This document shows, piece after piece, positions 1,533 through 52,366 of a DNA stretch of 64,000 nucleotides. The stretch is taken from sequence record OQ708376.1; one strand, 5' to 3'. Made by a program: the position numbers and the translations under genes. The number at the start of each line of letters is the position of its first letter. The first letter of the stretch is position 1. The notes beneath the pieces were generated by a model that did not search any database, had not been told where the DNA came from, and saw only the letters and a list, made by a program, of their open reading frames with translations. Source of the stretch: Escherichia phage vB_EcoM_CRJP21.

Positions 1533-1642
1533 AATTCCTCACCAAACTATTTGTTATCAAAATATTTATAGATTAGTTATTTGCAATATTTTAAGTACTT
1601 AATGAATATTTTTATAAAAATAGTGAGACAACTTTAAAGTTT

Positions 1643-1653
1643 GTGCTATAATG
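1643..1653 (+). promoter_or_regulatory. Extended -10 promoter TGTGCTATAAT (recurrent motif)
   Basis: Exact TGTGCTATAAT; same 11-mer recurs at 23535, 28841, 38871, 50957 with variants at 34018 and 45262. Confidence 0.5.
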
Positions 1654-1659
1654 TTTGTT

Positions 1660-2113
1660 GTAGTAATGACAATCCTGTTGAATGCAGAAATGCATATAAA
1701 TTAGAACCTGATCCTATCGAAAATGTAGATGGCAGATGAGCAGTTCAACAGTGCGATGAGCAAAAGAAACCCGTTAGATGTGGGCATAGTTTGAACCCCT
1801 CACGGCAATGCGGCTCAATAAAGAACTCCGATAAGCATACAGAGAGTTCCTCGATAGACATATAAGGATCGCACCTTACCAGATTTGCTAAGGGAGTTTA
1901 TTAAGTGATTTTAATAAACAGCCTGAAGTTTGATTGTATAGACTTTCAGGTGAGTGTCAGGATGATTAAGACTGACGACCGTTGCACATGACTGCGATAG
2001 AGAGAAACAGAGCAACCCGCTTTCGTTCTTAATATATTTTTAAGAAATTCGCAATACAATAAATGCTGAAACCATCAGCGTCAAGAAATAGAGACTTCAT
2101 TGTCTCTTTTTTA
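1660..2113 (+). ncRNA. Candidate structured non-coding transcript (~450 nt), function unknown; alternatively a replication-origin transcript
   Basis: No ORF of 60 aa or more on either strand across 1533-2370; bounded by promoter 1643-1653 and hairpin+T-run at 2090-2113; visibly GC-richer than flanks. Confidence 0.3.
2090..2113 (+). terminator. Rho-independent terminator
   Basis: Stem agagac/gtctct (2090-2095/2102-2107) followed by TTTTTTATT. Confidence 0.45.
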
Positions 2114-2330
2114 TTGTCTTCATTCCCCTGCGGGGGGATGAAAATGTCCTCAACAAATCCCGTCAAGTATTAAATCTTTTAAAGTTCTTTATAATTAATT
2201 TAATTAAATGAATATGAGTTACGTAGTAACGAATATTCTTCAGCTAACGAATGAAATGAGTTAGATGAATCCAATAATATTAAAATTAATCCTTTCATAA
2301 TTCAATTCAAATAATTCTGTAGTTTAAAAC

Positions 2331-2360
2331 CAAAAAAAAAACCAGCAACAATGTGCTGGC
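2331..2360 (-). terminator. Rho-independent terminator for minus-strand operon
   Basis: On minus strand: hairpin ccagca...tgctgg (2342-2359) followed by U10 (plus-strand A-run 2332-2341), just downstream of gene ending at 2371. Confidence 0.6.
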
Positions 2361-2370
2361 TATATGAAAA

Positions 2371-2580
2371 TTAGTGCTTCTCGTTTTGTTTTTTAATTTT
2401 TTTATTAAAAGACTTAACTAATAAGTCTCTATCTATTAATGGCATATTAAGGAGTGTTCCATAGTCAATGTTATCCATATATACAGAACATTCCATTAGT
2501 GCATTTTTGATTTCTGACTTATTCAGTTCTATCTCCTTCAGTACTTCTTGTATTTCTTCAGGAGATGACTGGAGAAGCAT
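2371..2580 (-). CDS. Hypothetical protein (69 aa)
   Basis: ORF start overlaps stop of upstream ORF at 2580; followed by terminator. Confidence 0.45.
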   Translation of the reverse strand: MLLQSSPEEIQEVLKEIELNKSEIKNALMECSVYMDNIDYGTLLNMPLIDRDLLVKSFNKKIKKQNEKH

Positions 2581-3416
2581 TACTCGAAAAAATGACTAGG
2601 ATCATATTTTAGTCCATCAATTTCCCATTGATGATTACATCCATCACATTCTACTTCCATACTATGAGATACACCAATTTCAAGTACTTCATCCATTTTT
2701 TCACGAATTAGTTTAAGTACTCCCTTCGATTGTTGTCCAAGCCATTCATTAATAAATTCTTTTTCAACTACTTCATCACCATCTGGTGTTATAATTTTTG
2801 CAATAACTCCACCAATCATATCGAAGTTAAGTTGAGCCATGTTTTCAAATACTTCAGAAAATATTTTTACTTTTTCATCTTTATCAATATCAGCAGTTTC
2901 AAGAAACTTAGTCTTCTGCTGCTCACTGAACATGCGTTCAGCAAACGATGAATATTCTTTCCATGTCAGTGGTCTAAATTCTAAACGTAGTCCATTATCT
3001 AAATCAATTGATGGGATTTCTTCAAATGCTTGTGCAGTTTCAAGAAGATATGATAGATTACGTTCAAATCGACCTTCTTTTTCACATTCAGGACATACAA
3101 CGTTAATATCATATGTTTCTTCTTTAGAAGCAACTTTAATAGCAATAAGAAGCATTTCAACGTCATTTACATACAACTCATCAGCGTCAATTACATTAGG
3201 AACACAGTTTTCAATAACACGGGATACTGCATCTCCGTTTAGTAACATATCGGGGGTATTAAGTGTCATTTCATCACGTGCACTACGTGCACAAACTCCA
3301 CATTTGACACCTTTTGGACCTAGAACTCCTTCTTTATAAGGAATAACGCCGTTTGTAACTAACTTAGTACTGATCTCTTCAATTTTAGTGTACTTAGCAA
3401 GTGGATTCATAGCCAT
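2580..3416 (-). CDS. Hypothetical Cys-rich protein (three CxxC pairs), putative zinc-binding
   Basis: 278-aa ORF; CGVC, CPEC, CDGC motifs; divergent from virion gene block. Confidence 0.55.
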   Translation of the reverse strand: MAMNPLAKYTKIEEISTKLVTNGVIPYKEGVLGPKGVKCGVCARSARDEMTLNTPDMLLNGDAVSRVIENCVPNVIDADELYVNDVEMLLIAIKVASKEETYDINVVCPECEKEGRFERNLSYLLETAQAFEEIPSIDLDNGLRLEFRPLTWKEYSSFAERMFSEQQKTKFLETADIDKDEKVKIFSEVFENMAQLNFDMIGGVIAKIITPDGDEVVEKEFINEWLGQQSKGVLKLIREKMDEVLEIGVSHSMEVECDGCNHQWEIDGLKYDPSHFFE

Positions 3417-11992: not shown

Positions 11993-13090
11993 ATGCCAAA
12001 CGTAAGTATCACCAAAGAAGAGTTTATCAGCAAAATGACTGCTAAGTATGGTGAATTTGATTTCAGTACTTTAGTATTCAAAGCAAGTAAGACAACAGTG
12101 AAATGTAACAAGTGTGGAAAAGAAAACACCAAACCTGCACTTCGTCACATTGCATGTACATGTGCATCATGTTATTCAAACATGTCACAACGTTCAAACA
12201 ACGACACATTCATCAGTACTGTAGAAACTAAATTTGGAAAAGATAAATTCAAATTTGATAAACTAAATTACACTAATGCTATATCAAAAGTAACAATTTT
12301 CTGCACAGATGAAGATCACAATGATTACTTTGAAATTACACCCAATAAATTTCTTTCTGGTAAAGGATGCCCCGTATGTAATAAAAATGAAGCATACAGT
12401 ACTGAAGAGTTCAAAGAAAAAGTAAAAGATAATTATGGTGATTTATTGGATTTAACTAACACGGTGTATGTAAATCAAAAAACTAAAGTAACTGTGTATT
12501 GTAACGCAGGTAATCATGAATGGACAGTTGATCCAAAAACTTTACTTGTTGGTAAGACTGGATGTGGTACATGCTCCGGTAAAGGCGGTCGAAGTACTGA
12601 ACGTTTCATTGAACTTGTGTCGCCTATCCATAACCATAAGTATGATTATAGCTTGGTGGATTACAAGACTAGTGATGAACATGTGGATATTATTTGTCCT
12701 GAACATGGTGTCTTTAAACAAATACCCAAATCTCATATGGCAGGAAGAGGATGTCCATCATGTGGTGAGTATGGTTATCAACCATCAAAGCCTGGATATT
12801 TCTATGTACAAAAACTATCTAATAACTCAAAAGTCGTTTACAAATACGGAATTACCGGAGACATGAAGAGACGAATTCATGAACAAAGTCGCAATTCTGA
12901 GTTCGAGCATGAAGTACTGGTAGAACGTTACTTTGAGGATGGTAATAAACCATTATTATTGGAAAAGTTTATCAAGCAATACATTGAAAGTGGTGTTGTA
13001 AGTACTGAAGAGTTACCGTCAGGATTTACTGAAACATTTGATGCTAAGTATCTTGAAAGTGTTTTAGAAATTGTAAATACTTTTAAGTAA
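11993..13090 (+). CDS. Multi-zinc-ribbon protein with C-terminal T5orf172/GIY-YIG-like domain
   Basis: Four repeats of the type GKGCPVCNK / GKTGCGTCSGK / GRGCPSCGE; C-terminus GYFYV...KYGITGDMKRRIHEQ...FTETFD resembles T5orf172 domain. Confidence 0.55.
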   Translation: MPNVSITKEEFISKMTAKYGEFDFSTLVFKASKTTVKCNKCGKENTKPALRHIACTCASCYSNMSQRSNNDTFISTVETKFGKDKFKFDKLNYTNAISKVTIFCTDEDHNDYFEITPNKFLSGKGCPVCNKNEAYSTEEFKEKVKDNYGDLLDLTNTVYVNQKTKVTVYCNAGNHEWTVDPKTLLVGKTGCGTCSGKGGRSTERFIELVSPIHNHKYDYSLVDYKTSDEHVDIICPEHGVFKQIPKSHMAGRGCPSCGEYGYQPSKPGYFYVQKLSNNSKVVYKYGITGDMKRRIHEQSRNSEFEHEVLVERYFEDGNKPLLLEKFIKQYIESGVVSTEELPSGFTETFDAKYLESVLEIVNTFK

Positions 13091-23393: not shown

Positions 23394-23534
23394 GAAAATC
23401 TCCTTGTCAAATTTTGTGCAGGTATATCCTGCTTAAAGTTATTTATCAAAAAATATCACTAGCATTTAAATTTACTGAGATATTTAATGAATTTCTATGA
23501 TATTATTTATCAAATCTGGGAAAGTGATTCAAGA

Positions 23535-23545
23535 TGTGCTATAAT
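23535..23545 (+). promoter_or_regulatory. Extended -10 promoter TGTGCTATAAT
   Basis: Exact 11-mer upstream of FEN/RNase H gene. Confidence 0.5.
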
Positions 23546-23554
23546 TATTAATGA

Positions 23555-28812
<5,258 letters not shown>

Positions 28813-50715: not shown

Positions 50716-50727
50716 ATTGTAACTAAC

Positions 50728-50752
50728 AGGGATTCTATGAATCCCTTTTCTT
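50728..50752 (+). terminator. Rho-independent terminator
   Basis: agggattc-tat-gaatccct followed by TTTCTT. Confidence 0.7.
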
Positions 50753-50890
50753 ATGGGTATAATATATGAAAGATATTTTTACAATAGATGCTAATGTTAT
50801 ATATGATTTTTATCTTACTGGTGGTGTAAAGGTAACGGGTACTGTGATTGATGTTTGTGATAATGGTATAATCTTAAGTGATGGCACTAG

Positions 50891-52366
<1,476 letters not shown>

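Follow-up and report, generated by a model that had tools for sequence, protein, structure and literature searches.

A structured non-coding RNA gene in the longest gene-free gap of a 121Q-type jumbo coliphage sequence, with paralogues across RaK2-like phages and single copies in bacterial chromosomal islands

The question addressed was what occupies the one long stretch without a protein gene in a 64,000-nucleotide (nt) piece of Escherichia phage vB_EcoM_CRJP21 (record OQ708376.1), a 121Q-type jumbo coliphage (Asteriusvirus); this piece, numbered from its first letter, is called the window below. Positions 1533-2370 contain no open reading frame (ORF) of 60 amino acids (aa) or more on either strand, the longest one there having 45 aa, and with 838 nt they form the longest ORF-free gap of the window, the runners-up measuring 250 and 167 nt; a preliminary description made from the sequence alone was thus right to call this the sole long stretch of its kind. 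The GC-enriched interior reported there was likewise recovered, with a G+C fraction of 0.41-0.44 in 1700-2000 and 0.24-0.29 in the flanks (0.25-0.29 across 2100-2400). By blastn the 838-nt stretch was 99.8% identical to Escherichia phage 121Q over its full length (100% over 1640-2180) and at least 99.4% identical to PBECO4, phAPEC6, slurp01, G17 and other Asteriusvirus jumbo coliphages (~350 kb). The answer, which we hold to be practically certain, is that 1642-2264 on the + strand is a self-contained, promoter-driven gene for a large structured non-coding RNA.

This conclusion is carried by comparison with homologues. Every RaK2-like jumbo phage in the collection proved by blastn to contain the core (~1690-2175) in non-coding DNA, with 67-75% identity; the matches come from 70-71 phage records with Escherichia, Klebsiella, Salmonella, Erwinia, Yersinia, Cronobacter, Pectobacterium, Serratia and Xanthomonas as hosts. 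Extra copies were collected by pattern scans of IMG/VR, GTDB genomes and JGI/ENA metagenomes and were confirmed by nhmmer, which gave 102 distinct full-length homologues in total; all 80 of the 80 metagenome pattern matches were true members of the RNA family, and IMG/VR matches outside jumbo-sized contigs were discarded as GC-rich chance matches. Pairing and covariation were counted on an alignment of 56 distinct copies (A3), on which a fold model of 20 helices with 105 pairs and four pseudoknots was built with RNAalifold and an all-against-all covariation scan. The model had 92.3% of cells paired, against 36-43% when the 3' partners were slid by 1-3 columns, and its covariation score was 0.539, against 0.07-0.10 for the slid controls; none of 500 shuffles equalled any of the observed measures. 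Both-sided changes were present in 78 of the 105 pairs, which is the outcome of the covariation check against related phages that the preliminary description had proposed. RNAalifold run on 18 sequences had predicted 70 pairs, 42 of them compensatory. The 455-nt segment also folded better than shuffled sequence (z -2.8); this single-sequence score is weak evidence, and the comparative evidence is decisive. The core and its main elements are as follows.

1659-2113, + strand: RNA core of ~455 nt, bounded by the predicted start and the last nucleotide of the internal T-run; 67-75% identity across genera
1675-1682 (CUGUUGAA) with 1744-1751 (UUCAACAG), + strand: pseudoknot PK1; 91.5% paired, double changes in 7/8 pairs (A3 columns 67-74/170-177)
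1757-1761 with 1813-1817, + strand: helix H4; 100% paired, 4/5 pairs compensatory
1771-1774 with 1802-1805, + strand: helix H5, inside H4; 100% paired
1823-1849, + strand: helix H6; 95.7% paired, 5/5 pairs compensatory
1834-1838 (H6 loop AGCAU) with 1885-1889 (UUGCU), + strand: pseudoknot PK2; 72% paired, double changes in 5/5 pairs
1896-1918, + strand: variable hairpin Hv, carrying an inserted module with loop UACAAUAUAGAUCCGUC in other copies
1922-1949, + strand: Hx; 8/8 pairs compensatory, its loop AUUGUAU (1933-1939) forming PK3
1933-1939 (AUUGUAU) with 2054-2060 (AUACAAU), + strand: pseudoknot PK3; 99.7% paired, 7/7 pairs compensatory
1954-2060, + strand: 3' core domain, made up of H9 (1954-1979), PK4, H11, H12, H13 (2026-2046) and the PK3 partner
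1981-1985 (GUUGC) with 2012-2016 (GCAAC), + strand: pseudoknot PK4; 100% paired
1993-1997 with 2049-2053, + strand: helix H11; 100% paired
2000-2024, + strand: helix H12; 100% paired, with a 15-nt conserved loop that contains the PK4 partner

The PK1 partner UUCAACAG sits in the loop of a GCA/UGC stem (1740-1742 with 1752-1754), and the PK1 span contains a hairpin (1683-1695) and helix H1 (1708-1735). How pairs are exchanged can be seen in single A3 columns: H3 column 165/179 is UA in 34 copies, AU in 12 and CG in 10, and PK4 column 529/561 is CG in 31 and UA in 24. Inside H4 lie the invariant GAAACCCGU, H5, a variable inner hairpin that is deleted or replaced in some copies, and the invariant ACGGCAAUGCGGC; the segment 1823-1896 also holds the invariant GAUAGACAUAU, hairpin H7 (1863-1878) and the invariant AAGGGAG (1890-1896). 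PK2 is the weakest of the pseudoknots, its support being partly limited by the alignment. The hairpin module with loop UACAAUAUAGAUCCGUC occupies one or both of two alternative peripheral sites (A3 ~405-450 and ~590-615), depending on the copy (examples: L001:4117-4663, L006:2444-3010, L213:12225-12260 and 12385-12410); it is absent from both sites in the window copy, and the orthologue of phage UE-S1 has it in H13. Large globular RNAs typically show such swapping of peripheral modules.

Transcription of the RNA is assigned to one element:

1623-1652, + strand: promoter, with the box GTGAGACA at 1623-1630, placed ~17 nt ahead of the extended -10 element TGTGCTATAAT at 1642-1652

A start near 1659 is predicted. 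A recurrent + strand promoter in the gap had been noted before at 1643-1653 and is the same element displaced by one position. TGTGNTATAAT occurs seven times in the window, on the + strand every time (0.49 expected), and a TGrGAmA box lies ~17 nt upstream of all seven copies; among the aligned copies of the RNA gene the TATAAT/TATACT position is invariant in 56/56. Judged by these motifs, the promoter of the RNA gene is of the phage-type sigma70 kind, with an upstream TGrGAmA box and an extended -10. With this upstream box the TGTGNTATAAT promoters match the 'divergent RpoD-like' TGAAACG class of CBB and GAP32, which is found mainly upstream of DNA-synthesis genes (PMC5259590). The six further exact copies, all on the + strand, are at window positions 23535, 28841, 34017, 38871, 50957 and 60978, and two of these fall at the next-longest ORF-free gaps (50716-50965 and 23394-23560). 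In the '30k' and '93k' paralogue groups a strong hairpin with a U-run follows directly after the -10 (e.g. L152:2413-2455 and L132:2925-2965; A3 columns 17-50); here the terminator of the upstream operon overlaps the RNA promoter and start, which would insulate the RNA and fix its 5' end.

At the 3' side the conserved unit continues beyond the T-run, through the following elements.

2067-2084, + strand: local hairpin and first copy of a repeated motif, AUCAGCGUCAAG, which ends at 2084
2090-2113, + strand: internal terminator-like hairpin (2090-2107; 6 bp, -7.9 kcal/mol, z -3.6) with a U-run (2108-2113)
2119-2142, + strand: G-hairpin UUCAUUCCCC-UGC-GGGGGGAUGAA (-16.9 kcal/mol, z -4.6)
2149-2167, + strand: CUCAACAAAUCCCGUCAAG, including the second copy of the repeated motif
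2168-2214, + strand: AU-rich spacer
2217-2231, + strand: hairpin GUUAC-GUA-GUAAC, covarying across the family
between 2217-2231 and 2244-2264, + strand: linker GAAUAUUCUUCAG
2244-2264, + strand: hairpin CUAAC-(11 nt)-GUUAG, covarying across the family

The hairpin and T-run at 2090-2113, already recognized in the preliminary description, are confirmed by the energy and z score given above. This hairpin covaries where present, is missing in 121Q copies B and C and in the BF copies at 30k and 335k, and is represented in copies from chromosomal islands by an equivalent without a U-run; on this comparison it is an optional internal element and not the end of the conserved unit. The proposal of a ~450-nt non-coding RNA with its own promoter therefore stands as regards conservation and covariation and needs correction as regards its limit, which is at ~2264. 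The linker motif AAWATTCTTWGRC was found 41 times in 2.57 Mb of retrieved DNA, in 40 cases on the same strand and at most 260 nt 3' of an RNA core, and because of this tie the 3' domain is assigned to the RNA element; it is also retained where an island copy is not followed by a co-oriented gene. In the G-hairpin six Gs are invariant and the 5' arm varies between C and U only; since such variation fits G.U tolerance, selection acts on the + strand RNA and not on the DNA or the minus strand. The 'direct repeats' containing TAACGAAT that had been reported at 2208-2275 are present, and are in reality arms and loops of the covarying hairpins 2217-2231 and 2244-2264. Two transcripts are inferred from this layout, a core RNA of ~455 nt and a read-through form of ~610 nt that would include the 3' domain and end at ~2264.

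Two segments of 10-12 nt with the consensus AUC(A)NCGUCAR (2073-2084 and 2157-2167; A3 654-663 and 747-756) flank the terminator hairpin and the G-hairpin and change in parallel across lineages, giving the pairs CAUCGUCAG/UCUCGUCAG, CACCGUCAG/CCCCGUCAG, CAGUGUCAG/CCGUGUCAA and GAGCUUCAAG/CGCCUUCAAG; for instance, CGUC becomes CUUC in the K64-1/RaK2 copies and CGAC in one Serratia island copy. A consistent complementary partner for both CGUCA motifs was sought and none was found, and a pairing of GAUG with CGUC proposed by RNAalifold was rejected, as it is invariant and is broken in K64-1. The joint variation of the two repeats may point to a conformational switch, to a protein site present twice or to template-jumping repeats.

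Could the region instead hold one or more overlooked protein genes, or a degenerate form of an established RNA class such as a group I intron, RNase P RNA or tmRNA? Both are considered highly improbable. Several GenBank records do annotate 'hypothetical proteins' across the region, with up to four coding sequences over the RNA gene in PQ390715, PQ330092, PP886230, OR699282 and several Salmonella phage SD records (the UE-S1 record has a 'repeat_region' there instead). However, the longest ORF has 45 aa, insertions and deletions lie in helices and have lengths not divisible by three, and substitutions preserve base pairs and not codons; these coding sequences are almost certainly spurious calls. 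As for known RNAs, neither the window nor any of 11 related loci (72 kb) contained a match that reached the gathering threshold of an Rfam 15 model (4227 models), the covariance models for ROOL, GOLLD and OLE included; with the limit relaxed to E = 10 on stretches of 1.1 kb and 151 nt, only terminator-like small RNA fragments and noise appeared, and RNase P was not among the matches to either stretch. ARAGORN detected no tRNA or tmRNA gene in the window, and the tmRNA model of Rfam reached 5.5 bits at best (E 9.9). No match to Intron_gpI was obtained, and the RNA has its own promoter and is intergenic in every context, without flanking exons. The preliminary judgement, made by eye, that the locus is none of tRNA, tmRNA, RNase P and group I intron is upheld by both programs, and the Rfam scan that it had recommended places no catalogued family in the window or the 11 related loci. 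A segment of ~25 nt, ACGACCGUUGCA ... ACAGAGCAACCCGC, may by eye be likened to part of the specificity domain of E. coli RNase P RNA, and is kept only as a lead. A likeness to the E. coli rRNA leader and 16S rRNA (GGGGAUGA...CGUCAAGU and AAUUCUUUGA) was dismissed after blastn against 5,426 E. coli genomes had returned island copies only and no rRNA operon. No description of the RNA was found in the literature searched, which included the genome papers of CBB, RaK2, UE-S1 and Sharanji. The family is a previously uncatalogued class without an Rfam model, and what it has in common with ROOL, GOLLD and OLE is only their kind: size, ornate fold and association with phages.

The RNA is not confined to one place per genome. 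RaK2/121Q-type phages carry three to five diverged copies, all on one strand of the record; the idea that the four to five match places per record were mere promoter matches was abandoned, as they are true paralogues. Within the window itself no second copy was detected by blastn or nhmmer. The copies are placed as follows.

121Q: 90.3, 192.8, 247.4 and 326.6 kb, the last being the window copy (copy A)
BF: 30, 93, 174, 259 and 335 kb
CBB: 32, 94, 174, 258 and 336 kb
GAP32 and Yen9-04: positions similar to those of BF and CBB
RaK2/K64-1: three places detected, in separate searches, at ~7, 191 and 280 kb

Paralogues are ~65-70% identical, and orthologues group by genomic position across genera; because copies at the same position cluster in this way, they are not homogenized within genomes. 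In the five-copy genomes the gaps measure 44-86 kb, and the probability that five random points on a circle have a minimum gap so large is 0.001-0.02; for the four copies of 121Q the corresponding value is 0.05. The downstream genes are unrelated between paralogue groups, and no conserved protein gene common to the groups was found beside the copies. In the '258k' group (L004, L005, L008, L009 and L141) an ADP-ribosylglycohydrolase or unrelated proteins of 79-208 aa are encoded 100-200 nt past the RNA and vary among close relatives; this site is a hotspot of gene turnover.

Copies outside phages were found in bacterial chromosomes. A blastn search of 5,426 complete E. coli genomes returned the RNA in two chromosomes. 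In E. coli LR-29-1 (NZ_AP027515; L213:7752-18650) it lies in a ~10-kb island beside ffs, together with an integrase gene split by IS3, a resolvase, membrane and secreted proteins, unknown genes, and a DuOB / DUF488 / DUF4326-mSLOG trio corresponding to PDC-M45, a candidate defence system of PADLOC; this RNA is 80% identical to the 174k copy of Serratia phage BF. Eight more full-length copies came from GTDB species genomes (Silvania, two Serratia, Enterobacter chinensis, Buttiauxella, two Enterobacteriaceae and one probably mis-binned contig), and many further copies of one island type from metagenomes. One full-length copy is on a 2.8-kb contig of a metagenome-assembled genome labelled 'Clostridium sp.' (L228; DPOH01000171) and shares 98% identity with the enterobacterial island type; misbinning of the contig is a likelier explanation than a genuine occurrence in a Firmicute. 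The island type frequent in the metagenomes (island type 1) has the order recombinase (tyrosine or large serine), RNA, convergent cI/LexA-like repressor, Ner-like protein, membrane protein, LprI-like protein and resolvase, the repressor, Ner-like and LprI-like labels being a reading of the protein sequences. Island copies retain the phage-type promoter box and the 3' hairpins, although they are not followed by a co-oriented gene. The island loci showed no replication gene, no protein among those tested was shared between islands and phages, and no homologue of the RNA was found in 72,556 plasmids. A perfect 13-bp inverted repeat, CCCTATAAATATC-GGTA-GATATTTATAGGG, lies ~40 nt upstream of the island RNA promoter (L215:2700-2735; also L221, L223, L228 and L229) and may be an operator for the cI-like repressor, in which case the island RNA would be inducible.

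What the RNA does has to be judged from this arrangement together with the fold. A role tied to position is favoured by three features: the copies are evenly spaced, they share one orientation, and each paralogue has been retained independently. For this reason we put at about even the chance that the RNA works where it is made or close by, as opposed to diffusing freely like a housekeeping RNA. Among single mechanisms the one ranked highest, by analogy with known origins and held as possible rather than probable, is that of a structured pre-primer for R-loop replication origins. Host polymerase would transcribe the RNA element; the folded core and the invariant G6 run would favour a stable RNA-DNA hybrid beside the AU-rich spacer; and phage RNase H and the replisome would then begin leading-strand synthesis. 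The single-copy chromosomal islands could be amplified, or could interfere, upon infection by such a phage. This scheme would merge the logic of T4 oriF and oriG (a promoter with an unwinding element and an R-loop primer) with the control by RNA folding of ColE1 RNA II. T4 has at least five early origins, of which oriF and oriG consist of a middle promoter and an A+T-rich DNA unwinding element with an R-loop primer, and plasmids with oriF or oriG replicate in infected cells only (PMC3016281). At the present locus the arrangement of promoter and unwinding element was found, in that the promoter at 1642-1652 drives a predicted transcript ahead of the AU-rich spacer 2168-2214. Also in favour are the three to five evenly spaced copies with a common orientation, the invariant G6 followed by that spacer, a promoter class tied to DNA-synthesis genes, and the occurrence of single copies in integrative islands where no replication gene was seen.

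Several results weigh against an origin. GC skew was 0.102 upstream and 0.110 downstream of 13 copies (4-kb flanks; p 0.64), although T4 oriA and oriC also show no skew shift, so that such a shift is not obligatory (PMC3016281). No homologue occurs among the 72,556 plasmids searched, and the element is therefore not a replicon that needs host factors only; autonomous replication in plasmids is, like the skew shift, no obligatory trait of such origins. RNA hairpins are conserved beyond the U-run, which a primer ending there does not explain. The known origin transcripts, T4 oriF and ColE1 RNA II, have to our knowledge no counterpart to four pseudoknots with invariant loops, and such complexity is more typical of ribozymes or of scaffolds of ribonucleoproteins (RNPs). 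Finally, RaK2 and K64-1 have three detected copies that are unevenly spaced, and as the related genomes are syntenic the spacing is effectively one evolutionary observation. The full picture, in which a pseudoknotted pre-primer licenses R-loops at five even sites of a 350-kb phage and islands with a captured copy are amplified or sabotage the phage, is regarded as rather unlikely in its entirety.

A different kind of function would be that of a trans-acting ribozyme, an RNP subunit or an RNA-only assembly comparable to OLE, ROOL and GOLLD, in which the paralogues would provide dosage or different specificities and the island copies would be expressed cargo or decoys; this is rated about as likely as the origin mechanism. 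It would account for a very complex fold, in which four pseudoknots are joined by single-stranded loops that never vary (AAACAGAGCAACCCG and UCGAAAAUGUAG among them), for the UACAAUAUAGAUCCGUC module that swaps between two peripheral sites like the peripheral elements of large ribozymes, for a promoter of its own and, in the paralogue groups with an upstream terminator overlapping that promoter, a defined 5' end, and for islands that retain the whole unit with no co-oriented gene behind it. Phages and prophages already offer examples of large ornate RNAs of unknown function (PMC12286853). Even spacing is not predicted by a trans-acting role, however, nor are the lack of homogenization and the keeping of every paralogue at a fixed syntenic position, and no candidate protein partner common to phages and islands was found; this explanation accounts best for the fold and worst for the genomic arrangement.

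A role in cis other than priming would be that of an antitermination leader, the nascent RNA modifying host RNA polymerase in the manner of HK022 put, EAR or the rrn leader so that terminators are passed, with each copy at the head of a transcription unit of tens of kb; on this analogy it is judged improbable. Since conservation at the RNA level continues past a canonical hairpin and U-run, read-through must be frequent; all copies run in the direction of most genes, most copies have co-oriented genes behind them, most paralogue groups have a gene start 10-30 nt past the last hairpin, and host factors are all that phages and islands have in common. A hairpin followed by CUCWACAAAU may loosely recall the boxB-boxA order. 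Against this, known antitermination RNAs measure ~70-120 nt and the present one ~600, the genes behind copy A, the Serratia island copies and island type 1 (the repressor gene) are convergent, and no Rfam antitermination family was matched. Less probable still, and rated a slight chance, is a decoy or anti-defence RNA that sequesters a host or defence factor; the islands would express the copy they had captured, either against the phage or for their own protection. Single copies are indeed AT-rich cargo of integrative islands, one of them with the PDC-M45 candidate defence genes, the identity of 80% between the LR-29-1 and BF 174k copies suggests capture from a phage, and island promoters retain the phage-type upstream box; yet no link to a known RNA-based defence or counter-defence system was found, even spacing is not needed for a decoy, and a sponge would not require so elaborate a fold.

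The genes around the window copy are arranged as follows.

1041-1532, - strand: endonuclease VII gene, divergent from the RNA gene; marks the syntenic position of paralogue copy A
2340-2361, - strand: terminator of the convergent minus-strand operon, annotated in phage G17; a neighbour outside the RNA
2371-2580 and 2580-3416, - strand: two genes downstream of the RNA, forming the convergent operon

Endonuclease VII is next to RNA copy A also in CBB, GAP32, Munch and XaC1, and genes for gp47/gp46-like recombination nucleases lie upstream of the ORF-free stretch. In the 121Q annotation the 2580-3416 gene encodes a baseplate hub subunit and the 2371-2580 gene a hypothetical protein; the next gene after these two is a structural gene on the plus strand.

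Few large RNAs are so rich in pseudoknots and invariant loops, and those known have all proved to be ribozymes, RNP cores or unexpected RNA-only machines. The present family has more than 100 members, very strong covariation and tractable hosts (phages 121Q, PBECO4 and phAPEC6; E. coli LR-29-1), and its function can be tested by way of two unusual traits, namely even, co-oriented and non-homogenized paralogues and capture by integrase-bearing islands. A link to origins would open the almost unstudied question of where replication starts in jumbo T4-like phages; if the full picture described above were true, no origin before it would have been defined by a conserved RNA tertiary structure, and no earlier satellite or defence element would have worked by mimicking the origin of a jumbo phage. 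If the RNA acts in trans, it would be a new class among the few large structured RNAs of bacteria and phages and a good target for cryo-electron microscopy. A practical consequence concerns annotation, where spurious 'hypothetical proteins' stand over the RNA gene in GenBank and no pipeline recognizes the RNA.

Among known systems, ROOL, GOLLD, OLE, raiA and HEARO are similar in having 500-800 nt, many helices, pseudoknots and strong covariation, and ROOL and GOLLD also in their frequent association with phages or prophages and in functions that were unknown at discovery (PMC12286853). In contrast to ROOL, GOLLD and OLE, the present RNA matches no Rfam model and its hosts are Enterobacterales and their jumbo phages. 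We know of no report of three to five diverged, evenly spaced paralogues per genome for these classes. In Pseudomonas jumbo phage PA5oct, which is distantly related to RaK2/121Q, ncRNA002 has 451 nt and makes up as much as 5% of phage reads in RNA-seq (PMC7318152); it is likewise ORF-free and ~450 nt long but is not homologous, as nhmmer gave no match and the invariant motifs of the family are absent from it. HK022 put, EAR and the nut and rrn leaders are cis-acting RNA structures placed soon after a promoter and followed by terminators that polymerase passes, and they depend on host RNA polymerase; they are five to ten times smaller, several copies here have no co-oriented downstream gene, and no model matched. 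RNase P RNA and group I introns are of similar size and have a pseudoknotted core, invariant junction nucleotides and peripheral hairpins gained, lost or relocated among members; they differ in that no covariance match was obtained at E = 10, and flanking exons and a mappable P4-type architecture are absent here. ColE1 RNA II has ~550 nt, its fold determines primer formation, and a G-rich segment is involved. Like T4 oriF/oriG and ColE1 RNA II, the present element places a promoter-driven transcript, here a predicted one, beside A+T-rich DNA, and like the T4 origins it occurs several times per genome behind a phage-specific (in T4, middle-type) promoter with a standard -10. The T4 origins have no sequence motif in common and do not depend on a particular RNA structure (PMC3016281), whereas more than 100 homologues of the present RNA keep a fold with four pseudoknots.

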